Part shown: positions 1 through 49,130 of the stretch, piece by piece | How positions within the stretch are numbered: the stretch's first letter is position 1 | Layout: every line of letters starts with the position of its first letter | DNA from: Enterobacter phage vB_EclS_AS5 | Direction: 5' to 3' (one strand) | Sequence record: OR753409.1 | DNA length: 49,578 nt | The notes under the pieces: model-generated | Seen by the model: the letters and a program-made list of their open reading frames with translations, nothing else | The model's database searches: none | Told to the model about the DNA's origin: nothing | Made by a program: the position numbers and the translations under genes

Positions 1-610
1 GCTGCACAAGGCACGCAGCCAGTTTGTTAAAGTCAAAAAAGATCGCCAAAACACACATCTTAAAAACAAATACGCAACGCTTGATAGCGTGCTTGATGCA
101 ATCACGCCAGCATTGACGGAAAATAAATTAATGATCATGCAGGACGGCGAGCGCATCGAAAACACAATGCGCGTCGAAACCACCGTGATACATATTTCCG
201 GTCAGTGGGCGAAATTTTATTTTGATATCCCAATAGCCAAAAACGATCCGCAAGGAGTAGGATCTGCATTCACATACGGGCGACGCTATGCACTGGCTGC
301 GGCGTTCGGACTAAGCCAGGCAGACGACGACGCGCAAATTGCTGTGAAGTCTGCGCAGGATTGGAAGCGAGATCTCGACAAGTGCGAGACTGTAGACGAC
401 TTGCAAGGCGTGTTGCGTGATGCGTGGAAGTCAAGCGACAAAGCGAACCAGGTGATCATTAAAGAGCACTACGAGAAGCGCAAAGCAGAGATTGAGATCG
501 GAAGCGCTCGCGGTTTTAGCGCCGCCGCTCCAAAGCAAAACCTTGCCACTAAGGTTGACGAGCCGCAAAAGCAAGCTGTAGAATCACAGCCAATCACCAG
601 TTTTGAATAA
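1..610 (+). CDS. erf: Erf-family single-strand annealing protein, C-terminal part. The frame is open from nt 2 and continues the ORF that starts at 49541 across the window ends.
   Basis: Frame 2 is open from nt 2 to the stop at 608-610. Motifs [11 protein letters not shown] and [18 protein letters not shown] resemble P22 Erf. Joining 49541..49578 to nt 1 gives the in-frame peptide MKLSENFDEILPSLHKARSQ... Confidence 0.75.
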
Positions 611-615
611 TCACT

Positions 616-640
616 CGGGGCGCTAGCCGCCCCAATTTTA
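616..640 (+). terminator. Weak stem-loop after erf, possibly an attenuator.
   Basis: GGGGCG-ctagc-CGCCCC followed by aatttta. The T tract is interrupted. Confidence 0.3.
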
Positions 641-652
641 CAGGAGAAAGCA

Positions 653-1075
653 ATGCACATTATCACCGGAGAAATTCGAAAAGAGCCTAGAATCAAGCAG
701 ACTCAAAACGGCACGCTTTACGTTGTTGAGTTATCAGAGCGCTACAAAGACCGTGAAGGAAACGCGCAATACACGAACTACACGTTTTTCTTTAATGCTC
801 GCGCCGGATCTGAGGGCATGAAAAACTGGTATGATGAAGCGTTCCAGGTTGGAAAAGTGATCTCTGTTTCTTGCGAAACGCTAAAGGCTGAATTGCGAGA
901 GTATGAGGGCAAGACGTATGTCACCATGCAAGCGGCAGACTTCCCGAAACTGCTGTTTAGCCAGCGCGGAGGCTCAGCGCCACAACAGCAAAGCCAGCAG
1001 CGACAGCAAACGCATAGCCAGCCACGGCAGAGCCAAGAACCGCCAATTGACTTTGACGACGATATCCCGTTCTAA
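653..1075 (+). CDS. ssb: Single-stranded DNA-binding protein.
   Basis: OB-fold-like N-terminus, a Q/P-rich linker and the acidic tail DFDDDIPF typical of SSB. RBS caggagaaagcaATG. Confidence 0.85.
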   Translation: MHIITGEIRKEPRIKQTQNGTLYVVELSERYKDREGNAQYTNYTFFFNARAGSEGMKNWYDEAFQVGKVISVSCETLKAELREYEGKTYVTMQAADFPKLLFSQRGGSAPQQQSQQRQQTHSQPRQSQEPPIDFDDDIPF

Positions 1076-1080
1076 AATAA

Positions 1081-1105
1081 AGGAGCCTTTCGGCTCCTTT
1101 TTTTA
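1081..1105. terminator. Bidirectional rho-independent terminator between convergent ssb and the tail-fibre gene.
   Basis: AGGAGCC-tttc-GGCTCCT followed by TTTTTTT. An A/T tract is present on both sides. Confidence 0.8.
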
Positions 1106-2254
1106 TTATTCAAAGTCCTCTGGGAATTTGAAAGCAAGATATGCCTCAAGCTTTTTAACCCGATCCTCAAGGCTCTTTCTCTTAGCCTTTTCATCCTTAA
1201 ATGCGGCGTGCATGTAACCTAACAGCCCCATGTAGTCAACCTGCAATGATCCGTCAGCATCGTTTGATGAAACAAGTTGAGGCATCCAGTTTTGCAACTC
1301 TTGCGCGATAACTCCAGCCGTGTAGCGACTACCATCCTTGTATCGGTAAGAGTACGTGCCAACCTTATCAAGAAGATCACTAACAAACTCGCCGTCAAGC
1401 TCAGTAACATCAGCTTTCTTATCGAAATCACATGTTAGCGTTACGCCCTTACTAATAACCAATCCCAATGTGTTGATATTTCCATCACGCGTATTAATCA
1501 AAACTGCTGGCTTACCCTGCTTAATACCGTTCGTTGGTGATGTATAAGCAGTGCAAAACGCAACGCCATACCATGAGTAAAGGTTAATGTTTGATGCGTT
1601 ATCAAAGTTGTTGGTATCAGTGCCAGCATGAATTCCGCGCAAACCAGCGCCAATAGGTGCCGTTGCATCAGCAGATGCGGGAACCTGAATACTTCCTCCA
1701 GCAAGCTTAAACTCGCCATAAGTTATCGCAGGGCAACGGATGTTGAAATCAGTAGTTTCAATGTTAATTCGACCACCAGTAAATGAGTATGACCCCTTTG
1801 TGTCCATGTTGATGTAACCAGCATAAAAGCGCAAGTTTCCACCACCAACCTGATCTGAGTTGTACCCGTCACATACTATTCTTGCGTCGTAGTCATACTT
1901 AGCTCCATAATGAAAGTCAACGTAAGCAGCCGAGTCTTTGTTTGATTTACCTAATTCAAGAGATCTAAATTCTGGGGTTGAGCTAACACCAAGGCCGATG
2001 TTTTCACGAGCACCAGCCGCATCCTTTGCACCAGTACCGCCCTGGTCAATCTTCAATGCAACATATTGAAAGTCTTTTTCATTGTAGCATCCCCACACAC
2101 CGCTTTGATGAACCATGAGAGCATATTTATCATCACCAACTTGCGGAGATAGAATAAGAGTTCGATCAGCGCCTTGAATATGCTTATCAACCTGTAGATT
2201 ACCCCTTGCGGTTGCCTTATTTGCAACGTCTGACAGGTTATTAGCTTTCTTCAA
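1106..2254 (-). CDS. Tail fibre, C-terminal segment, with distal domain and C-terminal intramolecular-chaperone (peptidase S74-like) domain. The same frame is open upstream to about 2737, but no ATG lies in that stretch.
   Basis: The C-terminal YSYRYKDGSRYTAGVIAQELQ...VDYMGLLGYM...LEDRVKKLE resembles the auto-cleaving chaperone of endosialidase-type tail fibres. The upstream frame reads as Ala/Ser/Thr-rich linker repeats. Confidence 0.7.
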   Translation of the reverse strand: MKKANNLSDVANKATARGNLQVDKHIQGADRTLILSPQVGDDKYALMVHQSGVWGCYNEKDFQYVALKIDQGGTGAKDAAGARENIGLGVSSTPEFRSLELGKSNKDSAAYVDFHYGAKYDYDARIVCDGYNSDQVGGGNLRFYAGYINMDTKGSYSFTGGRINIETTDFNIRCPAITYGEFKLAGGSIQVPASADATAPIGAGLRGIHAGTDTNNFDNASNINLYSWYGVAFCTAYTSPTNGIKQGKPAVLINTRDGNINTLGLVISKGVTLTCDFDKKADVTELDGEFVSDLLDKVGTYSYRYKDGSRYTAGVIAQELQNWMPQLVSSNDADGSLQVDYMGLLGYMHAAFKDEKAKRKSLEDRVKKLEAYLAFKFPEDFE

Positions 2255-2649
2255 CTGGTTATCAGGGTTTGCAGTTTGTGCGCGGTCTGCTTCCGCTTTT
2301 GCGCGATCCGCTTGCTGCGTTGCCGTGGTAGCCGATGCCGCCGCAGCGCTCTTTGATGCGTTTGCGCTTGATGCAGCTGTCTGAGCCTCGTTCTTTGCTG
2401 TATTTGCCGCGCTTGCACTGCTTGCTGCGTTTGTCTCGCTTGATTTTGCGTTTGTCTCGCTTGTTTTCGCAGCGCTTGCTGATGATGCCGCCGCCGTCTT
2501 GCTTGCACTTGCGTTTGTCTCGCTTGTTTTCGCAGCGCTGGCGCTAGCAGACGCAGCATCCTTATGCTGGCTTGCGGTTGTCGCTGAGCTTGCCGCCGCG
2601 CTAGCAGAGTTAGCCGCCGCCGTCTTGCTCGATGCCGCGTTGTTCTCGC

Positions 2650-3258
2650 TTACCTTTGCTGCGCTTGCTGATGATGCCGCCGCGCTTGCTTGCTGGCTTG
2701 CAGTTGTTGCTGATGCAGCCGCCGCATTCTTGCTTGAGCGCTTGCTGATGATGCCGCCGCGCTTGCTTGCTGGCTTGCAGTTGTTGCTGATGCAGCCGCC
2801 GCATTCTTGCTTGAGTTTGCATTGCTTTCGCTTTGCGCAGCCGCCCTTGCGCTAGCGTCAGCAGCCGCAGCGTTAGCCTCCGTGTTGCGATCAATTTCTT
2901 CAAGTTTTTGCCAATCAAAGCCTTTCAGGAATTCAACAAACTCCTGATACATTGTTTCCTGCCCCTGGTAGTAACGCAGAGTTTCAGCAACGTCTTGCGC
3001 CAGGCCGTCAACGGTGATCGAATCATGAAGCAGAATCACATAGTCGCCGCGAGGCACTACAGCGCCGCCAGTAGACGTGGCACGCAGCGAGGTATCATTC
3101 ACGATCTCGCTAATTGTTGCGTATGCAACCGGATTGGATGCAAACACGATTGTTGCACCTGGACGAATCAGCGTTAATGCTGTTTTCCACTTTGTGCCGT
3201 AACCAGTGATATAGCCGTCAGCGTCCATTGACGCTTGACCAGTGCGATAAATAGCCAT
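2650..3258 (-). CDS. Tail fibre, N-terminal segment. It ends prematurely after reading through the duplicated 77-bp unit.
   Basis: ATG at 3258 (MAIYRTGQASMDADGYITGYG...) preceded by the RBS gggag. The product ends ...SSKNAAAASATTASQQASAAASSASA and then reads out-of-frame QR-rich sequence before the stop at 2650. Confidence 0.65.
   Translation of the reverse strand: MAIYRTGQASMDADGYITGYGTKWKTALTLIRPGATIVFASNPVAYATISEIVNDTSLRATSTGGAVVPRGDYVILLHDSITVDGLAQDVAETLRYYQGQETMYQEFVEFLKGFDWQKLEEIDRNTEANAAAADASARAAAQSESNANSSKNAAAASATTASQQASAAASSASAQARMRRLHQQQLQASKQARRHHQQAQQR
2662..2815. repeat. Perfect 77-bp tandem duplication (2662-2738 and 2739-2815) inside the tail-fibre Ala/Ser-rich linker.
   Basis: Two identical copies of cgcttgctgatgatgccgccgcgcttgcttgctggcttgcagttgttgctgatgcagccgccgcattcttgcttgag. 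Because 77 is not a multiple of 3, the pair causes a frameshift. Imperfect in-frame repeats lie nearby at 2400-2560. Confidence 0.9.
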
Positions 3259-4377: not shown

Positions 4378-4818
4378 TTAGCTATTCGTGCTGTTTATGA
4401 AGTCCGACTCTTTAACGACGCGTAGCATTTCATACCTGTCACATTTCGTCGTTAGCGCTTTGCCGTTTGAGTCAAATCTCAGATCTGGACGGCAGAATGA
4501 GGCACGATAACCCTTGCATCCATTCCGCTTATAGTCAGCGTGAACCTTTTCGGCTCCAGAAACGGAAATCATCCCGCGCTTGCGCCACTGCTGAATAACC
4601 TGGTGAGTAACCTTTAAGCGTCTTGTCATTTCCGCCTGAGATCCGTAATATTCGCAAACGGCATCAAGTCGAGCACGCAATCCGGCTTTGACTTCATCTT
4701 TTAGAACGTAGTAGCCTGTTTTGCGCTTGCGCTTTTTCTTGTCTTTACCGCGCTTTACACCGTTGTTGCCATTGATTGTGCGCTTGTCAATTTCGCCAGT
4801 TGATGCAGCAATTTTCAT
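4378..4818 (-). CDS. Cro/CI-like HTH DNA-binding protein with a basic K/R tract.
   Basis: QAEMTRRLKVTHQVIQQWRKRG fits a helix-turn-helix. ATG at 4818 with RBS ggagg. The basic stretch is KRGKDKKKRKRK. Confidence 0.6.
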   Translation of the reverse strand: MKIAASTGEIDKRTINGNNGVKRGKDKKKRKRKTGYYVLKDEVKAGLRARLDAVCEYYGSQAEMTRRLKVTHQVIQQWRKRGMISVSGAEKVHADYKRNGCKGYRASFCRPDLRFDSNGKALTTKCDRYEMLRVVKESDFINSTNS

Positions 4819-4830
4819 ATTAAAACCTCC

Positions 4831-4875
4831 GATAGCACTTTTTGCTAAAAACATTCAAAACGTAGGCGCTATTAT
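4831..4875 (+). promoter_or_regulatory. Regulatory cassette: core gATAGCACtttttTGCTAAAA, 22 bp, then TATTAT. It overlaps a divergent minus-strand TGtATAAT.
   Basis: Conserved core with 22-bp spacing to the -10. A minus-strand -10 (tgtataat) overlaps at about 4866-4877. Confidence 0.5.
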
Positions 4876-4907
4876 ACATTCAATCGGTTAACGAATAAAG
4901 GTTAAAA

Positions 4908-6908
4908 ATGGCAATTCCAAACATTGATAAACAGCTTTCCGCTTTGGGTGAGGCGGTAATTAAAGCGATTCAAGATCGCTTTACGTTTGGCGAAATCACC
5001 CCATACCCTTACCAGTGTGTTGCTTACACTGAGATCGCAAAACGCATGAAAAATTACGAACATCCTTTCTTTGTGAAAGCGTCCGTATCTGCTGGTAAAA
5101 CCATGATTTTTGCAATGGTAGCGGCTCAGTGCCAGAGAATGGGGCTTAAAATGATGGTTCTTGCTCGCCAGGGTGAGATCGTAGATCAGGATTCAGAGGA
5201 GATCAGTAATTTCGGCGTGCCTAACTCCGTTTACTGCGCGGCGCTGAAACTCAAGGGAGTACACTTCCCCATCGTTGTTGGTTCCGAGGGAACCGTTTCA
5301 AATGGACTCTTTAAGGCGCTTGGTGACTACGTGCCACACGTTATCGGGATTGACGAATGCCACCAAGTAGATTGGGAGGATTTAGCTGAGGCAATCGAAA
5401 ACGAGGAGCCGTGGGAGCAAATGACCACGAAAAAAGGCGAGATTGTCCTGAATGGTGACGGCTCCCGCGCTCTCAACAATGACGGCGAGCCAATGGAGGG
5501 AACCGGACGCACGCAATACACTCTTATAATTCGCGAAATGCAGCGCCGATGCAAAGAGACATACGGGCATGAGTTGCGCATTTTTGGAATGACTGGATCA
5601 GAGTTTCGCGGCGTTGTTCCAATCCTGGTAGAAGATAAGCGCCAGCGCGGTTTCTGGCGTGAACAGGTGACGAACATTGATACCAACTACCTTATCAAGT
5701 TCGGATCCGTTGTTCCTACAAATTTTGGCGGCGTGGATGGATTGGGTTATGACCTTTCAGAGTTCACGGCATCAAGTGAGGACGGCGTAGCAGACTTTGA
5801 CCAGAAAACTTTGCGCAAGATGGAGGAGAAGATCCATAAAGATGCAACCATGACGCAAAAAATCATGGCACGCGTGCATGAGATCTGCAAAGACAGAAAC
5901 GGCGTGCTGGTAACTTGCGCGGGTGAGCGTCACTGTAAAGAGGCCGCTGCCGCACTTCCGCCAGGAGCAACATACAGGATCATCACTGGAAAGACCGGAG
6001 AGAAACAACGTAAGGAATGGTTAAAGGAGGCATTCGAGGGGAAAGTAAAATACATTTTCCAGGTTCAAGCGCTAACAACTGGCGTAAACGTTCCATATTG
6101 GGACACGTCAGTTATCCTGCGCAAAATCGGATCGCTTACTCTGCTGATCCAGCTTTTGGGGCGCGGTATGAGACTTTTAAAGAAATGGCACATCGAGCAA
6201 GGATTCAAAAAAGACGATCACCTTGTTCTCGACTTTGCCGGATGTATGGACGAGTTGGGGCAACTTTACTTTGATCCTATTCTGGAACAAGCGCAGTATC
6301 AGCGCCGTGGCGACAACGGAAAAGATCCTAAATTCTGCCCTGACTGCGGCACGGAAAACTCATTCTATGCACGCCGTTGCATTCACGTTGACGAAAACGG
6401 AAATCGCTGTGAGTATTTCTGGAAGTATCGAGAGTGCGAGGATCAGGTAGACCCGAGAACGAAAAAGGTTGTCGTTAAAGGTTGCGGTACTAAAAACGAC
6501 ATATCCGCTAGAATTTGCCGTTGCTGTGACGTGTCGCTTATTGACCCTAACGAAAAGTTATCCGGCAAGCACTACACTAAAAACGATTGGTGTAATGTAA
6601 AATCATTCAGAGTTGACATGACCAAAAACCAGCGCGGGATCGTGTTCTGTTATGAGCTTGAGTCTCACGGCGAAACGTTCAAAGCTTATGAGCGATTCTT
6701 CCCTGAGTCTGACAACCAGATCTGCAAGACGCTATGGAGGCAAACGGCGCTCAAGCATATTGCAGATCGCAGGATTGCAGGTGTTACTGCGAGCTATCGA
6801 AACGCTCGCAAGATTATGCAAAACGCGCATCACATTATGGCTCCGAAACGCGTTACGCATCGCAAAAACGCGAAAGGAGAGGACATTATTTATCATCGGG
6901 AGTTTTGA
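4908..6908 (+). CDS. SF2 DEAH/DECH-box DNA helicase with a C-terminal zinc-finger region.
   Basis: Walker A SVSAGKT, motif II IGIDECHQ, and CPDCG...C..C Zn-binding cysteines near the C-terminus. Confidence 0.85.
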   Translation: MAIPNIDKQLSALGEAVIKAIQDRFTFGEITPYPYQCVAYTEIAKRMKNYEHPFFVKASVSAGKTMIFAMVAAQCQRMGLKMMVLARQGEIVDQDSEEISNFGVPNSVYCAALKLKGVHFPIVVGSEGTVSNGLFKALGDYVPHVIGIDECHQVDWEDLAEAIENEEPWEQMTTKKGEIVLNGDGSRALNNDGEPMEGTGRTQYTLIIREMQRRCKETYGHELRIFGMTGSEFRGVVPILVEDKRQRGFWREQVTNIDTNYLIKFGSVVPTNFGGVDGLGYDLSEFTASSEDGVADFDQKTLRKMEEKIHKDATMTQKIMARVHEICKDRNGVLVTCAGERHCKEAAAALPPGATYRIITGKTGEKQRKEWLKEAFEGKVKYIFQVQALTTGVNVPYWDTSVILRKIGSLTLLIQLLGRGMRLLKKWHIEQGFKKDDHLVLDFAGCMDELGQLYFDPILEQAQYQRRGDNGKDPKFCPDCGTENSFYARRCIHVDENGNRCEYFWKYRECEDQVDPRTKKVVVKGCGTKNDISARICRCCDVSLIDPNEKLSGKHYTKNDWCNVKSFRVDMTKNQRGIVFCYELESHGETFKAYERFFPESDNQICKTLWRQTALKHIADRRIAGVTASYRNARKIMQNAHHIMAPKRVTHRKNAKGEDIIYHREF

Positions 6909-12451: not shown

Positions 12452-14029
12452 TCACCCCATTAAAGCAGGATTCACAAACACGCGCCCATTCGTGAGGCAT
12501 ACGTAATTCAGATCTTCAAGGATTGGCAGCAAGTGATCCTCAATTCGCTTCATCACGCCAGCCTGACCCAAGAACGGACGAACCTTGCGCACGGATTCGT
12601 AAATCGCTCGTGCAGTGATAGCGCCCTTATTTGCTTTTCCGAGCCTGGTTATCGTGTCGATAATCTTGATCAACTCTGCATCCTGACCAGCATGACCGGA
12701 AGCATTCGCCGCGCTGATGTAGGTCTTGCTTAACTCCTGGAACATCAAGAGCGCCTCCTGCATCGTCTCAACGTCAATATCTCGTGACTTTGTGGCGGTT
12801 CCGTTAACGTCCTGCCAGTTTCGGATCGTGTGGATAACGGAGGCCAGGCGAATAACCTGCTTATCCATTTTACCCAACGCGCCGCGTAGCATTGTGTGAG
12901 AATATTCTCCGCCGTCTGCTAGTTTTGGCTCCATTTCCTGGCGTGCCATGTTGAGCACTCGCATAGCGGAGCGGCTAACCTTCAATGAAACTGATTGCTC
13001 CGTCATGATATTGTGGATCAGCTTGTAATAATCCGCCTTAAGACCTGCATCAACTGGCGTGTAGGTTGTGTCTCCTTTGTCGTCAACAAACTTACGGCGG
13101 CCTAAGAATGATTCCTCGCGCACCAGCAAGAAGCGCTCAGAAACACCGATACCACGAGCACCAGCCTCCATAATGCCGCTGATTGTTTCGTCCTGCGCAA
13201 TCACAGCCATGCAACCGAGAGCCGTAAAGCTCATGTTGTTTTCTGCATTCGCACGGGCAATGGAAACGTGACCGCTATCCCAAGCTTTAAGCACCAATTC
13301 GCTGTTAGTCTTGCGCTCGCTATTGGCGTATGTCAGACCTAGCAATGAGTTTATACTTGTTGCCTCGTCCGATATAACAGCAAAGTTACCCTGGCGGAAG
13401 TTGATTTTAGCCAAGCCCTCTGGAGTGGTATCTGAAACCGGAAACACAACGTCGCACAGTTTTGCGAGCTTTTCCTCGTACTCCTCTTTCTCCTCATAAA
13501 GTGCGGCGTACTCAGTGCCGGAGCGCTCTGATTTTAATTCCTTTGCGATCCCGTTGAGTTTTGCCTGAATCTTTTTGCGCTCTTTCTTACGTTGCTCGTT
13601 GATGCGCTCAACCTCTGCAACAATCGGAGCAATAGCCATTGAGTTGATCGCGGATTTACCAGTAGACGGCGGCTGGCTGGTAACAACGTATAGCGCCGTT
13701 GGCTGATCGGTTCCGTGGTACTCCACTGTGAATCGTCCGAGCATTGCGGCAGACACGCAGCCTACAAAGTGCATATAGGCAGATGAAACAGGGAATTGCA
13801 CAGACTCCGCCAGGCTGCGAGACAACTTGCCTACAACGTCGCAATCGTTGCCGAGGGAAATAACAGGGTATTTGTCGTTTCCGCTGTTAATGTCCTTCAC
13901 GTCACCCCAAAAACCAGACGAGCGAGAGTATCCGTTTGCCTGTATTGCAACCTTAACGGCGCTCAAGCCTTGAGCCTCAGCCGTTGAAATGATTTGTTGT
14001 GGTGTCAGCGTGGATTGTTCAAAAAACAT
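12452..14029 (-). CDS. DUF3987-like P-loop NTPase, a putative replicative helicase or primase-associated ATPase.
   Basis: Walker A QPPSTGKS and Walker B AVISDEA. RBS aaggag. 525 aa. Confidence 0.65.
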   Translation of the reverse strand: MFFEQSTLTPQQIISTAEAQGLSAVKVAIQANGYSRSSGFWGDVKDINSGNDKYPVISLGNDCDVVGKLSRSLAESVQFPVSSAYMHFVGCVSAAMLGRFTVEYHGTDQPTALYVVTSQPPSTGKSAINSMAIAPIVAEVERINEQRKKERKKIQAKLNGIAKELKSERSGTEYAALYEEKEEYEEKLAKLCDVVFPVSDTTPEGLAKINFRQGNFAVISDEATSINSLLGLTYANSERKTNSELVLKAWDSGHVSIARANAENNMSFTALGCMAVIAQDETISGIMEAGARGIGVSERFLLVREESFLGRRKFVDDKGDTTYTPVDAGLKADYYKLIHNIMTEQSVSLKVSRSAMRVLNMARQEMEPKLADGGEYSHTMLRGALGKMDKQVIRLASVIHTIRNWQDVNGTATKSRDIDVETMQEALLMFQELSKTYISAANASGHAGQDAELIKIIDTITRLGKANKGAITARAIYESVRKVRPFLGQAGVMKRIEDHLLPILEDLNYVCLTNGRVFVNPALMG

Positions 14030-16464: not shown

Positions 16465-16658
16465 TATTCACTCTCCAGTACAGTAACAGGTTCCAGGCGC
16501 TCCAGCACAACTTTGAAGTCGGCAAAGAATGTCGGCCTACGTTCGGTTAACTCCGTATAGGTGTCAGTCGCCAGCGTTGCGCGATCACCTTCATAGCACA
16601 CTACACGCTTTCCATCTGCGCGGCTGATTGCCACCACGCGATAAGTGTTTTTGATCAT
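16464..16658 (-). CDS. Hypothetical protein of 64 aa.
   Basis: ORF in the leftward early operon. Confidence 0.5.
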   Translation of the reverse strand: MIKNTYRVVAISRADGKRVVCYEGDRATLATDTYTELTERRPTFFADFKVVLERLEPVTVLESE

Positions 16659-16677
16659 GCGTTATCTCCTGATTGGT

Positions 16678-16941
16678 TTAGTTCTTAACCTGGCTCATGC
16701 GATCCATTTCACGATACCAGATAATCAAATCATCAAGCGCCAGGAACAAGTCAGCTTTCTTTGTCTCCTTGATGGTGTCACAAACCAGGTTGATATCACA
16801 CTCCAGTACGCCAAGGTACTCACCATACTGACGGCAACCTTCAATATTGTCCGCCTTGCTTGTGCGGCGTATGTTGCGCTGCGCACGGCAAATCAGGCTG
16901 ATCACGTTGCTGGTTTCTTTGCTGGTTATGTGATAGGTCAT
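16678..16941 (-). CDS. Hypothetical protein of 88 aa.
   Basis: ATG at 16941 (MTYHITSK...) preceded by the conserved leader catcgaaacgaactgaggaaaacgaaATG. Confidence 0.5.
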   Translation of the reverse strand: MTYHITSKETSNVISLICRAQRNIRRTSKADNIEGCRQYGEYLGVLECDINLVCDTIKETKKADLFLALDDLIIWYREMDRMSQVKN

Positions 16942-16972
16942 TTCGTTTTCCTCAGTTCGTTTCGATGAATGC

Positions 16973-17017
16973 ATTATGCCAAATCCAGATCACGTAGTTT
17001 TAGCAAAAAGTGCTATT
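16973..17017 (-). promoter_or_regulatory. Regulatory cassette on the minus strand driving the leftward early operon: core, 22 bp, then CATAAT.
   Basis: Reverse complement of 16998-17017 is aatagcactttttgctaaaa. The -10 is at 16973-16978. Confidence 0.5.
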
Positions 17018-17024
17018 CAATCGG

Positions 17025-17140
17025 TAGTTAGATGATTTGGTGATTTTCTGACCTGCATTTTGATGGTTAGTTTGATGCGCGTCAGCTTTTGACGAGATTT
17101 GATGATTGTTGATTAGATTTGATTGGATTTGATTGTGGGA
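17025..17140. repeat. Cluster of 5-6 direct GATTTGATTG-type iterons in the divergent early control region, a candidate replication origin.
   Basis: gatgatttggtgatttt, ttttgatggttagtttgatg and gatttgatgattgttgattagatttgattggatttgattgtggg, embedded in 690 bp of AT-rich non-coding DNA. Confidence 0.55.
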
Positions 17141-17594
17141 ATCATCATGGTCTGACGATGCCGTTTTTGCGCTCCAGAAAACTCCATTCTGTTATTTCCT
17201 GTTTACACTCGTTTCCTCTTGTTACCGAAAGTACGGTGGCGTAGTTTGTTCGCGTTTTTCGCGTGACGAAAACAAAAAAAACTTTCAATCACCCTATAAA
17301 CAACTAATAAAATCAATAGTTTATTTTATATATGTTATGTTTGTTTTCACTACGTTATACTTGTTCCATATGGTATGGTGTGGTTATGGGATTTTATTAT
17401 TGGTGGTATTGGTTAATTTATAGGCATTTTCCGCTCAGGATGTGTGCGATTCATCATTGGGCTATGGTTGCTTTGGGTGACATATACATATCTATTATGG
17501 CCTCCGAAAAAACTGTAACACCGGTAACATGGAAAAAACACGTTTTGTGGTTAAGCAAATCAGTAACTTACGACAAATTTTGTTTTTTGGCTCA

Positions 17595-17631
17595 AAAAAA
17601 ACTTGTGGAAACCGATTGTAACATGCATAAT
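17595..17631 (+). promoter_or_regulatory. Sigma70-type promoter TTGTGG-N17-CATAAT for the rightward early operon.
   Basis: cTTGTGGaaaccgattgtaacatgCATAAT followed by the conserved-type leader caccacgaaacgaacaaacggagg. Confidence 0.45.
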
Positions 17632-17663
17632 GCACCACGAAACGAACAAACGGAGGTAAAACT

Positions 17664-18089
17664 ATGTCAGATCAATCATTTGGCGATCAGTTGCGTGCAG
17701 CAGCGCGAATGTTGGCGAGTGGCGAGCGTGATGAAATCATCATGACCGACTACCAGTTACAGCAAGCGTCCGGCAAGGAGAAAATCAACCCAAGCCACAT
17801 CCGTACCACGATGGCGCGAGAGGTTCGCACCCTGGGAGCTATCAGCGTGAAGCGAATCACGGATCCGATTGGGTACGTTTGCACATTCAACCCTGATCCG
17901 AAAAAGCGAGCGGTTGCCAGCGACGAGCTACCAGCTATCAAGGTGCGAGCGGCTAACAAGTCGCTGAAAGCGATTGCAGACGTTATGCCAAATCTCACAG
18001 ACCTGGAGGGAGAGCAGTTGCAGGGCGCTATCATTGCAGTGCAGCGCTACCAGGATTTAATCAAGAAGCAAATCAAAGAGGAGGCTTAA
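17664..18089 (+). CDS. Hypothetical early protein of 141 aa.
   Basis: First gene of the rightward early operon. RBS acggaggtaaaactATG. Confidence 0.6.
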   Translation: MSDQSFGDQLRAAARMLASGERDEIIMTDYQLQQASGKEKINPSHIRTTMAREVRTLGAISVKRITDPIGYVCTFNPDPKKRAVASDELPAIKVRAANKSLKAIADVMPNLTDLEGEQLQGAIIAVQRYQDLIKKQIKEEA

Positions 18090-18091
18090 TT

Positions 18092-18352
18092 ATGTGCAAC
18101 GAGAAAATCGATCAGCTTGTGGATGAAATCATTGAGACGCACGACCGCGCCGGATTCAACTCTATCTTTATGATATGCCCTGACGCGTGCGGCGTTACAG
18201 AGAGCGAGCTTAAAGAAGCAGTTGAGCAGGTTGAGTCCGTACTCCGAACCGATAACCCTGACGACGAAATCTTTTCAGCCTTGACCGCTTGCGATGGTGG
18301 CGGAGTGTTTGCCCTGTCATTCATCAACGCGAATACGATCTTGACCGTCTGA
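18092..18352 (+). CDS. Hypothetical protein of 86 aa.
   Basis: ORF closely following the previous gene. Confidence 0.55.
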   Translation: MCNEKIDQLVDEIIETHDRAGFNSIFMICPDACGVTESELKEAVEQVESVLRTDNPDDEIFSALTACDGGGVFALSFINANTILTV

Positions 18353-18358
18353 TTGGTA

Positions 18359-18403
18359 AATAGCACTTTTTGCTAAAACAGCCCCGCGAGAGTGGGGCAT
18401 AAT
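18359..18403 (+). promoter_or_regulatory. Regulatory cassette (class B): core, hairpin GCCCC..GGGGC, then CATAAT.
   Basis: 22 bp from TTGCTA to CATAAT. Confidence 0.55.
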
Positions 18404-26752: not shown

Positions 26753-27283
26753 ATGAGCAGAGAAGAAAAGCAAAAGCCATTCACGGCTTACAATTTCAAG
26801 AAGCTATATAACAAGCAATATGGCGACATTGCCACGTTAGGCAAGCAACACCGATACACGCCGGAGCAGGTTTTCAATCTTGCTGTCAAATACTTTGAAT
26901 GGGCTGAGTCCAATGCACTAAAGGCGGCTGAATCTTCATCGTTCCAAGGTCGCACGTACCAGGATGAAGTAAACAAGCCACGCGTTTTCACTTTCAACGG
27001 TCTGCGCCTGTTTTGCGGCTGGTCGCGCTGCGCGATGGAGAAATGGAAGAAAGAGCCTGGCTTCTCTGAGGTCATGGAGTTTATCGAATCTGTGATCTAT
27101 GAGCAAAAATTCCAGCTTGCGGCTAACGGCGTGATCAACGCTGCATTCATCGCCAAAGATTTAGGAGTTGATCAGCCAGCGCAAATCAACGTTAGCGCAA
27201 ACTCTGAGTCAAGCGCTGCAATCGCAGAGGTTGGAGCAGACGAGGTGCGCGAGGCGGTTCGTGATATTCTGGCGGAGATTTAA
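26753..27283 (+). CDS. Terminase small subunit.
   Basis: Sits directly upstream of terL. RBS aggaggctaaccATG. Confidence 0.6.
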   Translation: MSREEKQKPFTAYNFKKLYNKQYGDIATLGKQHRYTPEQVFNLAVKYFEWAESNALKAAESSSFQGRTYQDEVNKPRVFTFNGLRLFCGWSRCAMEKWKKEPGFSEVMEFIESVIYEQKFQLAANGVINAAFIAKDLGVDQPAQINVSANSESSAAIAEVGADEVREAVRDILAEI

Positions 27284-27285
27284 TC

Positions 27286-28857
27286 ATGCTGATTTGGGAA
27301 GATTTAACAGTGGCGCAGAAACGCGCCATTAAAGAAATGAGTGAATACTCGTTCGAGAAAATGATCCGTATATGGTTTCAGTTGCTACAGGGGCAGAAGT
27401 TTTTAGGCAACTGGCATTTCAGCTACTTGTGCCACGAGGTGGAGAAAATCATTTCCGGCGAATCGCAAAACGTGATCTTCAACATCACGCCAGGCTCAGG
27501 TAAGACTGAGGTTTTCTCGATCCATATGTCGCCTTATGCGTCGCTGAAAAGCAAGAAGGTGCGAAACCTCAACTTGTCATTCTCTGATGGCCTTGTCCAG
27601 CAGAACAGCAACCGAATCAAGGAAATTATCGGCTCTCCAGAATGGCAGGAGCTATGGCCTGGCAAGCTGGCGAAAGCGAGCGCGAAAGATCTGATTGTGC
27701 AGGACGGCAACGGCAAGGTTAAATTGCAGGTCAACTCTCGCTCCATCGGCGGACAGGTAACGGGTTTGCGTGGCGGCTACATGGATGATGGATTTACAGG
27801 AATGTTGGTACTTGACGATCCAGATAAACCTGACGACATGTTTTCAAAGGTGCGCCGCGAAGCGATTCACAGCCGCCTCAAAAACACCGTTCGATCTCGT
27901 CGAATGAAAGACACCACGCCTATTGTGATGGTTCAGCAGCGCTTGCACGTCAACGATTCGACGTGGTTTATGACAAGCGGCGGTATGGGTGGCATTGAGT
28001 TTAAGGTTGTAAGCATTCCGGCACTGGTAACGAAAGAGTATGGCGATTCGCTACCTGATTGGTTAAAACCAGAGTTTGAGCGTGACGTGCTGAGTAGCGA
28101 GCCAGTTTACATTGACGGCGTGGCTCATTACTCATTCTGGCCTGCAAAGGAGAGTGCAAAGGACTTGCTCGCACTACGGGAAGCGGATCCGTATACTTTT
28201 GCGTCTCAGTACCAGCAACAGCCAATAGCGCTGGGTGGTAACGTGTTCAAGGTGGATTGGTTCCAGTTTTACGGCGACGGAGAGAAATGCACGCTACCGA
28301 AACCGGATCGCTTTGAATATACGTTTATCACTGGCGATACGGCGCAGAAAGCCGGAGAGCTTAACGACTACTCTGTTTTCTGCTATTGGGGCATGTTCAA
28401 GAATCGCGTTTACTTCATTGACGGCATACGCGGAAAATGGGAGGCTCCAGATCTTGAGACGAATTTCAAGGCTTTCGTCAATCAGTGCTGGAAGCGCAAC
28501 AAGGAGTGTGGCAGCTTGCGCCGGATCCACATAGAGGACAAAGCGAGCGGTACGGGTTTGATTCAGGGTGCGCAAAAGAGCTTGCCTATTGATATAAATC
28601 CCGTTCAGCGCAGCACGGACAAAGTTACACGCGCAATGGATGCCGCGCCAGTTATGCGAGCCGGACGCGTTGCTCTACCAGAGAGTCACCCGATGTTAAA
28701 CGAGATTCTCGCAGAGGTAGCGGCTTTCACTTTCGACGACTCACATCCAAACGACGATATCGTAGATAACATTGTTGATGCTGTTAACGTTGAAATGAAC
28801 CTTGCAGACGATCCAGTTGCGCGAATGAAAAAGCTTGCTGGGCTACGGAAGAAATAG
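27286..28857 (+). CDS. Terminase large subunit.
   Basis: N-terminal ATPase with Walker A ITPGSGKT and Walker B LVLDDPD, plus a C-terminal nuclease region. The stop TAG lies in a cassette core. Confidence 0.9.
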   Translation: MLIWEDLTVAQKRAIKEMSEYSFEKMIRIWFQLLQGQKFLGNWHFSYLCHEVEKIISGESQNVIFNITPGSGKTEVFSIHMSPYASLKSKKVRNLNLSFSDGLVQQNSNRIKEIIGSPEWQELWPGKLAKASAKDLIVQDGNGKVKLQVNSRSIGGQVTGLRGGYMDDGFTGMLVLDDPDKPDDMFSKVRREAIHSRLKNTVRSRRMKDTTPIVMVQQRLHVNDSTWFMTSGGMGGIEFKVVSIPALVTKEYGDSLPDWLKPEFERDVLSSEPVYIDGVAHYSFWPAKESAKDLLALREADPYTFASQYQQQPIALGGNVFKVDWFQFYGDGEKCTLPKPDRFEYTFITGDTAQKAGELNDYSVFCYWGMFKNRVYFIDGIRGKWEAPDLETNFKAFVNQCWKRNKECGSLRRIHIEDKASGTGLIQGAQKSLPIDINPVQRSTDKVTRAMDAAPVMRAGRVALPESHPMLNEILAEVAAFTFDDSHPNDDIVDNIVDAVNVEMNLADDPVARMKKLAGLRKK

Positions 28858-28872
28858 CACGAATTGCTAAAA
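28853..28872 (+). promoter_or_regulatory. Cassette core AATAGCACgaatTGCTAAAA with no -10 at the usual spacing. A terminator follows instead.
   Basis: The core is present but the 22-bp spaced -10 is replaced by a terminator hairpin. Confidence 0.4.
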
Positions 28873-28885
28873 GCGTGTACAATAA

Positions 28886-28911
28886 AGGCTGGACTTTTCC
28901 AGCCTTTTTTA
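28886..28911 (+). terminator. Rho-independent terminator between terL and the portal gene.
   Basis: GGCTGGA-cttt-TCCAGCC followed by TTTTTT. Confidence 0.7.
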
Positions 28912-28928
28912 TTATGGGAGATCAGATA

Positions 28929-30203
28929 ATGACAGAGAAAACAAAACTCGTTAAGGCTGACGGCTACAACGAGATCTTTAAAGGGGAGCAGCGAGTAGAG
29001 ACTCCGTTTTATATGCAGGGAGGCGTTGCAAAGCAGAGCCTAGCAACGTTCTATGAGCGTGACGGCATGGCAAAACGAATCATTGACGTGATCCCGGAGG
29101 ATATGGTTACGCCAGGATTTAACGTTGACGGAGTAAAAGACGAGGCAGCGCTCCGCTCTCTTTGGGATGAGAAAAAAATGGACTCAAAGATCATTGACGC
29201 TCTTTGCTGGTCGCGCTTGTTTGGCGGCTCCGCTATTGTCGCTGTTATCAACGATGGGCGAATGCTGAAATCTCCAGCCAAAGAAGGAGCGCCACTTGAA
29301 GATATTCGCGTTTATGACCGATTCCAGATCCGAGTTGAGAAGCGGGAAACAAACGCGCGTAGCGTGCGCTATGGCGAGCCTGTTTTGTACACCATCATGC
29401 CAGGCGGCGAGATTCCAGAGTATCAGGTGCATTACACGCGAATCTGTATCATTGACGGCGAGCGCTTACCTAACGAGCAGCGCCAAAAAAATGATGGCTG
29501 GGGCGCGTCAATCCTAAACAAAAAGCTGATCGAGGCAATCCATGATTATAACTATTGCGAGGAGTTAGCGACTCAGCTTTTGCGTCGCAAGCAGCAAGCA
29601 GTCTGGAAAGCTAAAGGACTAGCGGATTTGTGCGACGATGAAGAAGGTGTATCTGCGGCGCGTCTGCGATTGGCTCAAGTTGACGACGAGGGCGGCGTTG
29701 GTCGAGCAATCGGAATTGACGCAACGGACGAGGAATACGAGGTGCTTAACTCTGATATTTCCGGCGTTGACGCATTCCTTGAGAAGAAAATGGATCGCAT
29801 CGTTTCGCTTACTGGCATCCATGAAATCATCTTGAAGAACAAAAACACCGGAGGCGTTAGCGCAAGCCAAAACACGGCGCTTGATACATATCACAAGCTG
29901 ATTGAGCGCAAACGCAAAGAGGACTACAAGCCGATCCTGGAATTCATCTTGCCATTCATGATCGCAGAGCAAGAGTGGTCTATTTCGTTTGATCCGCTTT
30001 CGGTTCCTAGCGACAAAGACCAGGCTGAAATCCTGAATAAAAACATTGACTCGATCAGCAAGGCGATTGAAGGTCAGTTTATGGATGTTGAGGAAGGACG
30101 CGACACATTGCGCTCTATCGCTCCGTCTCTTAAACTGAAAGACGGAAACAAAATTAAGCTACCGGAGCCGGAGCAGGAGCCGGAGCCAGGAACGGAGGTT
30201 TAA
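28929..30203 (+). CDS. Portal protein.
   Basis: 424 aa, immediately after terL. RBS gggagatcagataATG. Confidence 0.85.
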   Translation: MTEKTKLVKADGYNEIFKGEQRVETPFYMQGGVAKQSLATFYERDGMAKRIIDVIPEDMVTPGFNVDGVKDEAALRSLWDEKKMDSKIIDALCWSRLFGGSAIVAVINDGRMLKSPAKEGAPLEDIRVYDRFQIRVEKRETNARSVRYGEPVLYTIMPGGEIPEYQVHYTRICIIDGERLPNEQRQKNDGWGASILNKKLIEAIHDYNYCEELATQLLRRKQQAVWKAKGLADLCDDEEGVSAARLRLAQVDDEGGVGRAIGIDATDEEYEVLNSDISGVDAFLEKKMDRIVSLTGIHEIILKNKNTGGVSASQNTALDTYHKLIERKRKEDYKPILEFILPFMIAEQEWSISFDPLSVPSDKDQAEILNKNIDSISKAIEGQFMDVEEGRDTLRSIAPSLKLKDGNKIKLPEPEQEPEPGTEV

Positions 30204-30206
30204 TCC

Positions 30207-30956
30207 ATGAAGGTAAAAGGAATCGTTAAACAGTGGCGATTTCCCGAAGCCAGCGAGCGGCAATTAAGCCGCTCCATTAAAGAGGCTGTAAGGGATCTGG
30301 TTGTGTTTATGCGCAGCAAGACAAAGGCGATGAAGTTTGACGCTACAGATCAGGAGATCAGCAGCGCAGAGGACGAGATCAAGGAGTTCGCAAAAGAGCT
30401 TGCACTCTCCCTGATTGGTCTGCTTCCGGCGCTAGCGTCTGCTGTATACAAATTCAACTCTAAGCAATGGGTCAATGTTGCGAAGTCAACCGGAGGGGCT
30501 AACAATCCTGTTATCATCCTGCTAATCGCAGTCGGAGCCAATCAGAGCGAGGAGTGGTATCAAACGCTTTACGGCGAATGGCGCAACATGAGCGCAGCCT
30601 CGTTTGATAAGCTTTTCACAAACATAATTAACGATTGGTCTGCGAACATCCGGCAAGCAAATTTCACAGGAAAGAAAGCAGAGCAGGTAAACGAGATCGC
30701 GGAGCGTCGTTTCATGGTCTACTCGTCTTGGGCTGGCAACCGCGCAACGGGAATCATTGGATCTTGGAATAGTCGCCTTATGCGCCAGAGATTACTTGAC
30801 GCTGGGGTGAATTCTTATTACTGGCATGGTATGCTAGACGAACGCGAGCGACTTAAACACTTACAATGGGAGGGAAAGGAGATCGGGATTGACGAGATTC
30901 ACCCCTTCCCTGGTGAGGAGTACGGTTGCAGATGTTGGGCGATTCCGAAATGGTAA
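30207..30956 (+). CDS. Minor head (head morphogenesis) protein, SPP1 gp7 / Mu F-like.
   Basis: Follows the portal gene. 249 aa. RBS ggaggtttaatccATG. Confidence 0.65.
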   Translation: MKVKGIVKQWRFPEASERQLSRSIKEAVRDLVVFMRSKTKAMKFDATDQEISSAEDEIKEFAKELALSLIGLLPALASAVYKFNSKQWVNVAKSTGGANNPVIILLIAVGANQSEEWYQTLYGEWRNMSAASFDKLFTNIINDWSANIRQANFTGKKAEQVNEIAERRFMVYSSWAGNRATGIIGSWNSRLMRQRLLDAGVNSYYWHGMLDERERLKHLQWEGKEIGIDEIHPFPGEEYGCRCWAIPKW

Positions 30957-47569: not shown

Positions 47570-47639
47570 AGCGTTATCTCCTTTGTGTATTGTGTGCGCA
47601 TAAATGATACCCCCACACGCTAAGACGTGCAACAACAAA

Positions 47640-48060
47640 CTAAAAATTTACCAGTTTGTTCTTTTTGTTTCTCGTTGTTTCCTATTGCGCCCACCGTAGG
47701 TTCGCACAACGTTTTAGAACAGAAAAAACAAAATAATCCATCTATAATATATAATAAAATCAATGGTTTAGTTTATATGTATTTGTATATTGTTATTTAT
47801 TGTTTCCAATGTTTCAGTGTTAATTGATGTACTGGATTGCTTTCGTCTGGATATCTCTATTAGCCATTTGATATGTGTATTTATATAAACCCCACCGTAA
47901 ATCCGTGAACAATGAAACAAAAAATAACGACTTTTAAAATCATGCACTTAAGCGCTGATTTTGTTATCTAGGCAGAAAGATGTGTTTTGAAAACAGAAAA
48001 AACAAAGATGGTATTGACTAAACGCCACAAATGGCTACAATGCACGTATAACAACACACA
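47640..48060. repeat. AT-rich non-coding region carrying two copies of a composite direct repeat (CCCACCGTA ... ACAGAAAAAACAAA).
   Basis: Copy 1 at about 47689-47740 and copy 2 at about 47887-48005. Also contains long A/T tracts and (TA)n. Confidence 0.45.
48014..48042 (+). promoter_or_regulatory. Sigma70-type promoter TTGACT-N16-TACAAT for the exonuclease operon.
   Basis: ggtaTTGACTaaacgccacaaatggcTACAATgc lies about 30 nt upstream of the RBS ggagcg. Confidence 0.5.
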
Positions 48061-48071
48061 GGAGCGAAAGA

Positions 48072-49130
48072 ATGAGTGATTTTAAGGTTTTCACAAGCGC
48101 AGAAATGCCGAACGAGGTTTATCACGATCCGAAAAGCTGGACGGCTGAATACACAAGCGGATCTAATCTGGCTGAGGTACATGAATCATCGCCAGCCTCA
48201 TGGCGATTCAAGGATCGCGATGAAAAATCAAAGCCACTGGTTTTCGGTACGCAGTCACACACCAACTTTGAAAGCAAGGCACTATTTGAAAGCACATATC
48301 GCAGAGCGCCAGCACCGGAAGATTACGAGGGCATAATCACAAGCCAGGCAGCTCTAGCCGCGAAACTGAAATCTTTCGGCCTGAAAGGTACAAGCGGGAA
48401 GTCATATCCAGAACTGATTAAGATGATGGTTGATTGTGGCGAAGATTTGCACGTCCAATGGCTCATTGAAATGATCGCAGAATCAGAAGCACGCGCCGCA
48501 GGTGTTGAGCTTATTAACGCGAAAGATTACGACGCTTGCGTAGCAATGCGCCAGGTTCTCGAATCCATACCGGAGCACAACGCGTGCATGAATAGCCCAA
48601 CGGCACAGCGCGAGCTTTCTATTTTTGGCGTTATCAACGGCGTAAAGGTTAAGGTTAGACTCGATCACATTGACGAGTGCGAGAATGTGGAGTACACCCT
48701 GATCACAGGATACGACGACAAATGGCAACCAATTAGCGAGGTGATCACATATCCAGAAGCAATTGTGATCACAGACTACAAAACAACAATGAGCGCAAAT
48801 CCTCGCGAATTTGAGCGCCAGGCTTTCGATAAAGGTTACTATCTAAAAATGGCATTACAGCATGACCTTTTCCGCAAAGCATACCCAAACGAAACGCGCC
48901 CCGTGGTGGTTCGACTGCTGGCGCAGGAGAAGAAAAAGCCTTACTTGCCTCTGGCGTTCAGGATGAATAGCGAACAACTTAAGATCGGGCGCATTCAGTA
49001 CATGAGTGTGATCAATCAGTTTGCAATGTGCCAGGCGCATAACATCTGGCCTTCATACGCAAACGGCGCGCCGGAGATTTCACTAACAACCCCTGATTGG
49101 GTGCGTCGCCAGTACAAAGAATTTCTGTAA
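48072..49130 (+). CDS. RecB-family PD-(D/E)XK exonuclease, the likely recombination partner of Erf and SSB.
   Basis: Nuclease motifs HIDECENVEY and VITDYKTT (motif III DYK). Confidence 0.55.
   Translation: MSDFKVFTSAEMPNEVYHDPKSWTAEYTSGSNLAEVHESSPASWRFKDRDEKSKPLVFGTQSHTNFESKALFESTYRRAPAPEDYEGIITSQAALAAKLKSFGLKGTSGKSYPELIKMMVDCGEDLHVQWLIEMIAESEARAAGVELINAKDYDACVAMRQVLESIPEHNACMNSPTAQRELSIFGVINGVKVKVRLDHIDECENVEYTLITGYDDKWQPISEVITYPEAIVITDYKTTMSANPREFERQAFDKGYYLKMALQHDLFRKAYPNETRPVVVRLLAQEKKKPYLPLAFRMNSEQLKIGRIQYMSVINQFAMCQAHNIWPSYANGAPEISLTTPDWVRRQYKEFL

Follow-up and report, generated by a model that had tools for sequence, protein, structure and literature searches.

T1-like phages are often met as laboratory contaminants, are candidates for therapy, and act as generalized transducers, yet both their packaging (pac) sequence and their replication origin lack a definition at the nucleotide level. 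Here we describe a gap without genes between two divergent early operons of the Enterobacter phage vB_EclS_AS5, with a focus on the array of short TGAT repeats and the AT-rich module that it holds. The window, i.e., the whole stretch of DNA analyzed, is 49,578 nt long (OR753409.1), and all coordinates are window positions unless another genome is named. Judged by its sequence, it covers all or nearly all of the genome of a T1-like siphophage (Drexlerviridae, Tempevirinae, Henuseptimavirus). Over 16600-18100, it is 95% identical to Escherichia phage Henu7 and 89-93% identical to IsaakIselin, JohannLBurckhardt, and BubbaBully.

The gap runs from 16942 to 17663 (about 720 bp) and divides the leftward from the rightward early operon. 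On its left lies the first gene of the leftward operon (16678..16941, minus strand), which encodes 87 aa (phrog_21333) and was recognized from the open reading frame (ORF) list, a PHROG match, and synteny in Henu7 and the BASEL phages; its ATG at 16941 is preceded by a GAGGAA Shine-Dalgarno sequence. The same operon contains small genes, a Dcm methylase, and a DUF3987 helicase (12452..14029, Pfam DUF3987). On the right, a DUF7174 gene (17664..18089, plus strand) starts at 17664 behind a GGAGG Shine-Dalgarno sequence and is followed by small early genes, the small terminase, the large terminase, and the structural genes.

An earlier note on this DNA had described the gap as a divergent non-coding region, and rightly so, as it is non-coding in four close relatives (Henu7, IsaakIselin, JohannLBurckhardt, and BubbaBully) with a mean column identity of 93%. 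Its center (17200-17500) is 92-97% identical among them, equal to the flanking genes. The note had also doubted two predicted ORFs in this DNA, and the relatives agree with that doubt. The ATG of ORF 17332..17745 is ATA or ATT in all four, and ORF 17133..17423 carries single-base indels in BubbaBully and JohannLBurckhardt, so that neither is a gene.

The most conspicuous feature of the gap is a TGAT(T)/TTGAT direct-repeat array at 17030..17135 (plus strand). TTGAT starts at 17060, 17072, 17099, 17109, 17119, and 17129, and TGATT at 17033, 17041, 17103, 17110, 17120, and 17130, giving six copies of each in 17033-17135 (expected per 120 bp, 0.27 and 0.24, respectively). The final four TTGAT units follow each other at exact 10-bp intervals, and TGAT is found eight times on the plus strand and once on the minus strand. 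All three window copies of GATTTGAT lie inside the array, together with two copies of AGATTTGAT and the hexamer AGATTT at 17095 and 17115; the repeat units measure 5-10 bp and contain no GATC. When the whole window is scanned, TTGAT/TGATT clustering reaches its genome-wide maximum here, which confirms the direct repeats that the earlier note had seen. They are also maintained in relatives, even where the surrounding DNA has diverged. JohannLBurckhardt and BubbaBully carry a different allele at 16700-17100 (44-72% identity) that still holds 8-9 TGAT units, and their small terminase is 99.4% identical to that of the window. In the literature that we found, neither the phased TGAT array nor the duplication of the AT-rich module with its IHF site is described.

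Packaging ends of relatives at the repeat array

The window encodes a headful-type terminase with a small and a large subunit. The small terminase (26753..27283, plus strand) belongs to the P22 gp3 family (Pfam GP3_package, E 9e-14; phrog_606), and its gene lies 9.6 kb downstream of the array; the large terminase is a Terminase_6C protein.

For three relatives, the position of the packaging end can be compared with the repeats. Restriction mapping of phage TLS yielded a 6-kb submolar pac-HindIII fragment and a 2.7-kb EcoRV sub-fragment (PMC11447400). The TLS record has HindIII at 5876 and EcoRV at 2733, in agreement with the published fragments, and its base 1 opens with AGATTT inside the homologous TGAT run, at the junction between TGATgatTGATgtgtg and agattttgTGATtgaaatTGATtTGATtTGATtagatttgag. 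At gel resolution, the mapped packaging end therefore coincides with base 1, and packaging goes rightward. In the RefSeq record of T1, the first base falls within a block of TGAT/GTTGC repeats that occupies the same gap, and positions 1..2800 are annotated as terminal redundancy/repeat region. In both TLS and T1, TGAT clustering has its genome-wide maximum in this very block. For SU57 (Braunvirinae), PhageTerm placed the end at an abrupt change of read coverage in the same gap, rightward of the SU57 repeat block by about 50-150 bp, and the authors locate pac in the corresponding region of T1. In all three relatives with packaging-end information, the end thus coincides with the homologous repeats or is no more than about 150 bp away from them.

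Because the packaging ends of relatives fall there, the array is more likely a packaging signal than part of a replication origin. The earlier note had taken the GATTTGATTG repeats for replication iterons, a claim that these ends do not support; nor was an initiator-type protein (Rep-, O-, or DnaA-like) found in the flanking genes or the helicase, of which the fold of the C-terminal 95 aa was not examined. In the simplest reading, the array would be the packaging initiation site and its phased, one-strand repeats a binding array for small-terminase oligomers, with both the binding to TGAT units and the exact cut site being presumed.

The gap belongs to the pac-plus-early-promoter gaps of T1-like phages, and we read it, with a probability of about 0.6, as a composite early-control and packaging region with four elements in left-to-right order. 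These would be a leftward early promoter in the form of a 76-nt family cassette (21-nt repeat, -10 element, and fixed leader), the 105-bp one-strand TGAT(T) array as the pac site, an AT-rich module that IHF could bend, and a rightward early promoter. On replicated concatemers, a small terminase of the P22 gp3 type would attach to the helically phased repeats and the large terminase would cut nearby, after which headful packaging would proceed rightward via the early genes and then the terminase and structural genes. If so, the ends of TLS, T1, and SU57 in a family-wide phased TGAT array offer a concrete target for tests of recognition by the small terminase, which may aid in predicting pac-like sites in hosts and in engineering packaging or transduction. 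It would also correct a natural misreading, namely that repeats beside AT-rich DNA make an origin.

Among known systems, the pac region of TLS and T1 comes closest. It occupies a divergent gap with a leftward helicase operon on one side and small early genes, transcribed rightward, on the other; the small-terminase gene follows about 9 kb downstream. It shares with the window the 21-nt repeat, a TGAT-rich block, the AT-rich module, and the terminase family. The TLS array has GATTTGAT and AGATTTGA units in common with that of the window, whereas the T1 and SU57 arrays add GTTGC/TGCAAT units; TLS and T1 also have GATC sites at the array edge, where the window has none. The TLS authors defined pac by the hexamer AGATTT only and described the genome as being without iteron-like repeats (PMC11447400). 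P22 itself likewise uses a GP3_package small terminase and a headful mechanism, and its pac core AAGATTTATCTG contains AGATTT (PMC11447400), of which the window array has two copies. In P22, however, one asymmetric site of 22 bp within gene 3 makes up pac, and the window holds a 105-bp intergenic array of multiple repeats.

More distant parallels are found in other phages. P1 pac, which depends on Dam methylation of the GATC in its repeats, has TGATCA/G hexamers flanking the cut plus an IHF site, and in SPP1 the pacL and pacR boxes lie on bent DNA with short repeats flanking the cut. The likeness consists of short TGAT-containing repeats near an IHF consensus; the terminase proteins are unrelated to those of the window. 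Moreover, unlike in P1, the IHF consensus of the window stands about 175 bp from the array and is also present in a second module that has no array. ICP1 carries its pac in a 489-bp intergenic region, and an intergenic region of the PLE satellite holds both pac and ori. Here the resemblance is that of a pac in a large intergenic region, outside the small-terminase gene, and of pac and ori as neighbors in the same non-coding DNA; phage and satellite are unrelated to the window and have no sequence similarity to it.

Several points weigh against a pac function of the array. The packaging ends come from the relatives TLS, T1, and SU57 and not from this phage, to which they would apply by homology. 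The TLS end has gel resolution and received its final placement via a 6-nt similarity to the P22 pac (PMC11447400), and the T1 end is taken from the record start and its annotation. A pac of the gp3 type usually lies inside the small-terminase gene, and here it would be 9.6 kb upstream. Compared by eye, the 22-bp P22 pac consensus and the array share the AGATTT hexamer only. In addition, the array is replaced in the lineage of Enterobacter phage BHUENT9, represented by an IMG/VR contig (3300045988_030853, here L014): positions 1329-1490 hold a different repeat set (AATCAAAAGTTGTCATG twice, GGAATA, and AATAATCA), with TGAT mostly on the opposite strand. The left half of this stretch resembles T1, and the central module and both flanks are kept at 79-90% identity. 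All phages with the array of the window are at least 98.7% identical in both small terminase and helicase, and the lineage with the replaced array is 76-90% identical everywhere, so that an association of the array type with the terminase cannot be separated from one with the helicase. Among the IMG/VR searches for further copies, a 33-mer returned three contigs, a 15-mer was unspecific, and single-protein queries returned close relatives only. The TLS and SU57 papers were all that our literature search turned up on a pac site of T1 or an origin in Drexlerviridae.

The AT-rich module and its second copy

To the right of the array, a block that is conserved in the alignment (17141..17265) contains TGTTACC (17220), a small hairpin (17220-17241), and the palindrome CGCG-TTTTT-CGCG (CGCG-T5-CGCG, 17251-17263), of which the stem is only 4 bp. 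A terminator-like scan hit in this block was no better than those in shuffles. It is followed by the AT-rich core (17270..17350), which reaches 83% A+T over 60 bp, the second highest value of the genome, and is also conserved in other genera. A8 tracts are found at 17274-17281 and 17594-17601. In the core, AATCAATAGTTTA at 17311-17323 matches the IHF consensus (WATCAANNNNTTR) exactly, with TAATAAA and an A8 tract ahead, making it a putative IHF-binding site. Farther to the right come a G/T-rich stretch (17371..17414, plus strand), the composition of which is conserved at the same place of the module in TLS and other genera, and tandem TGTAACA/GGTAACA heptamers (17514..17529, plus strand). A third TGTAACA stands at 17617-17623 and an inverted GGTAACA at 17220-17226. 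At the place of the tandem heptamers, TLS has two copies of GTGAACA and T1 three copies of GATTAACA. The palindrome, the A tracts, and the G/T-rich stretch listed in the earlier note are all present.

A second AT-rich/IHF module (47570..48072), without a TGAT array, fills the divergent gap between a Cor-like lipoprotein gene and the exonuclease VIII gene (48072..49130). It aligns colinearly with 17190-17663 (z = 4.3 versus shuffles that preserve local composition). The paralogue of the core lies at 47740-47800, with a 27-nt match to the first copy at 47752-47778; the A+T content of the genome peaks at 47740 (87% over 60 bp), and an IHF consensus of identical type stands at 47758. Of the five matches to this consensus in the window, two therefore fall in the two AT-rich cores (17311 and 47758). 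The second gap also holds a near-consensus promoter (TTGACT-16-TACAAT). The module upstream of exonuclease VIII recurs across Drexlerviridae genera, and its order is that of A-tracts, AT-rich core, G/T-rich stretch, short repeats of the GAACA/GTAACA type, and strong promoter.

The heptamers are distributed differently from phage to phage. In T1, all six genomic copies of TGTAACA/TGTTACA lie within its two AT-rich divergent gaps (60-538 and 29851-30377), the first of which also holds the tandem GATTAACA repeats (three copies) and two copies of AAATTACGCC. In TLS, four of the eight GTGAACA copies are located in the two modules (413-438 and 28759-29011). In the window, the 47.7-kb module contains one GTGAACA, the 17-kb region contains GTAACA variants, and the enrichment of heptamers is weak.

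Array and module can be inherited apart. Klebsiella phage Samwise (2500-3134, versus window 16975-17663) has kept the leftward gene and the TGAT array (array 96% identical), and its central module and first rightward gene differ from those of the window, with a breakpoint at about 17204. The joint of this mosaic thus lies inside non-coding DNA, and the swapped module is similar to those that precede exonuclease VIII. Given the swap in Samwise and the absence of an array from the 47.7-kb module, we consider the array and the AT-rich core to be separate units.

Origin, operator, and RNA readings of the gap

The earlier note had combined an origin with an early transcriptional switch. What stands of this is a divergent control region that is conserved, AT-rich, and marked by repeats; the repeats as a part of the origin are not supported. 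The inflection of GC skew that it had suggested as a check does exist at about 17 kb, as one of several. Sign changes occur at about 5, 12, 17, and 47-48 kb, each with a switch of the gene strand, and the skew was dropped as an origin test for that reason. The global minimum of the cumulative skew falls at about 5 kb, at the 4854-4908 junction. This is a third divergent junction of about 54 bp only, between an operon of a Cro/YdaS-like regulator and the primase on one side and a SNF2-type helicase on the other. DnaA boxes with one mismatch occur once per module and 26 times in the genome.

Could the TGAT repeats nevertheless be iterons for a phage initiator, be it the DUF3987 helicase or another early protein, with the AT-rich stretch as the site of unwinding? 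They are phased direct repeats on one strand beside an AT-rich stretch that ranks second in the genome and carries an IHF consensus, in a region heading the operon that ends in the DUF3987 helicase; 8-bp iterons are known from phage P4, and the literature on T1-like phages maps an origin nowhere else. Direct repeats beside AT-rich DNA are indeed what the window shares with the iteron origins of lambda and P4, the lambda origin being located inside the initiator gene and having 19-bp iterons. We nonetheless regard this explanation as unlikely, as the repeat block is where the packaging ends of three relatives lie, and array and core do not appear to form one unit: the same core is found at 47.7 kb with no array beside it, and in Samwise only the module is swapped. 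The core (17270-17350) and the array are 140-200 bp apart. Proteins like Rep, O, or the origin-binding domain of P4 alpha were not detected, a search among solved structures returned no match for the DUF3987 helicase, and GC skew tracks the gene strand with its global minimum elsewhere (about 5 kb). If there is an origin in the gap, the AT-rich IHF module (17270-17350 and its flanks) would be a better candidate than the repeats. Since the papers on T1-like phages map no origin, one could lie in this module, and we tentatively entertain a reading in which the module (17141-17560) and its paralogue (47600-48050) are the origin or origins of T1-like phages, with the array still acting as pac. Lineage-specific heptamers (GTAACA, GTGAACA, or GATTAACA) would then flank a meltable core beside a strong promoter, either as a two-locus system like P4 ori/crr or as promoter-activated unwinding elements, all of which is compatible with the packaging reading. 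No other stretches of the genome are as AT-rich as these modules, each of which has one of the five IHF consensus matches; they are colinear (z = 4.3), conserved across genera, and as conserved as coding DNA, and they hold 6/6 TGTAACA copies in T1 and 4/8 GTGAACA copies in TLS, which may point to a protein that binds them specifically. The PLE satellite, with pac and ori in one intergenic region, provides a precedent. P4 offers 8-bp repeats at about 10-bp spacing at two loci (P4 annotation), to be compared with the two AT-rich modules of the window; the core of its ori type 1 repeat GGTGAACA (P4 9310-9413) is GTGAACA, the heptamer of the TLS modules, and the Zn-ribbon of P4 alpha is shared by the primase of the window. 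Yet homologues of the helicase and the origin-binding domain of alpha were not found in the window, which is why the P4 analogy is only an architectural lead; besides, and unlike in P4, the TGAT array accompanies one of the two modules only. Also against an origin, the two modules of one phage carry different heptamers, and the same features would suit an upstream activating region. UP-like A-tracts and IHF sites upstream of strong early promoters are familiar from Mu Pe and lambda pL. In either case, the duplicated AT-rich IHF-site module stands as a specific candidate, be it for the origin that is missing or for control of the early promoters. A P4-like bipartite ori/crr in the strict sense was rejected, as the window showed neither clusters of GGTGAACA-type octamers at two loci nor an alpha-type primase-helicase with an origin-binding domain.

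It is quite improbable, in our view, that the array serves instead as an operator array that controls the divergent early promoters through a transcription factor of phage or host, for instance the Cro/YdaS-like regulator (4378..4854) or a protein of the ribbon-helix-helix type. The array does sit between the divergent promoters, at -65 to -170 from the leftward start, its short phased repeats are typical of cooperative binders, and a regulator gene is encoded in the window. However, it overlaps neither core promoter, the rightward one being 470-580 bp away, it is missing from the 47.7-kb module and from the 19 remaining promoter cassettes, and the packaging ends of relatives at the array would be left unexplained. 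Hardly credible is a small RNA or small protein encoded in the conserved center, a thought prompted by non-coding DNA as conserved as the neighboring genes and by an ATG-initiated hydrophobic ORF of 17 codons (17370-17423, MVWCGYGILLLVVLVNL) that spans the G/T-rich stretch. No convincing promoter-terminator pair is present in it, the best matches of an Rfam scan of the region were far below the gathering scores, and folding z-scores versus shuffles (+0.37, -0.75, and +0.23) speak against a structured RNA. Scans of the region for tRNA and tmRNA found none. The 17-codon ORF has no Shine-Dalgarno sequence and meets a stop at codon 3 in BubbaBully and is therefore probably not coding, and relatives have lost the start codon or the frame of the larger ORFs.

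Predicted promoter cassettes around the gap

The promoters at both ends of the gap were called because of their conservation in relatives, and both are presumably active. A consensus-based scan for promoters and terminators gave no more hits than shuffles and missed these conserved sites. On the left, the putative promoter comprises a -10 element and a box in the 5' untranslated region (5'UTR; together 16955..16979, minus strand), marked by inverted repeats and invariant in relatives. The -10 element, CATAAT (16978..16973), has TGG ahead of it and is thus extended -10-like. The box is an inverted copy of that in the rightward leader (GCATAATGCA to CGAAACGAAC), the two forming inverted repeats with 10/10 complementary positions. 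The GCATAATGCA/CGAAACGAAC boxes common to both divergent leaders would accordingly represent the -10 region (CATAAT) plus a common 5'UTR. On the right, the predicted early promoter (17594..17631, plus strand) is invariant in the relatives and in L014 and consists of an A8 UP-like tract (17594-17601), a -35 element TTGTGG (17603-17608), a 17-nt spacer, and a -10 element CATAAT (17626-17631). The 5'UTR with its CGAAACGAAC box and the GGAGG Shine-Dalgarno sequence (17637..17663, plus strand) leads to the DUF7174 gene.

The leftward promoter is accompanied by one copy of the T1-family 21-nt direct repeat (aaATAGCACnnnTTGnTAAAA, 16998..17018, minus strand), co-oriented with transcription. The consensus is matched exactly at 16998-17016 (minus strand), and 76 nt separate 17017 from the ATG at 16941. 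This repeat was reported in TLS, T1, and Rtp about 76 nt 5' of start codons (PMC11447400). In the window, ATAGCACnnnTTGnTAAAA is present in 20 copies (0.12 expected), almost always in the orientation of the genes and in two subtypes (TTT and GAA). Examples are found at 4832, 7324, 8785, 14083 (minus), 14781 (minus), 16086 (minus), and 16998 (minus), and further at 18360, 19452, 19709, 21147, 23382, 24679, and 28854. Together with a -10-like element and a leader, the repeat forms cassettes of about 76 nt ahead of many genes.

The 43 nt at 16975-17017 (promoter and 21-nt repeat) also have an 86% match within hypothetical-protein genes of T4-like Klebsiella phages of about 175 kb, Matisse and Miro among them. 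The same 43 nt match genomes of about 50 kb that were deposited as 'Campylobacter phage' and look T1-like.

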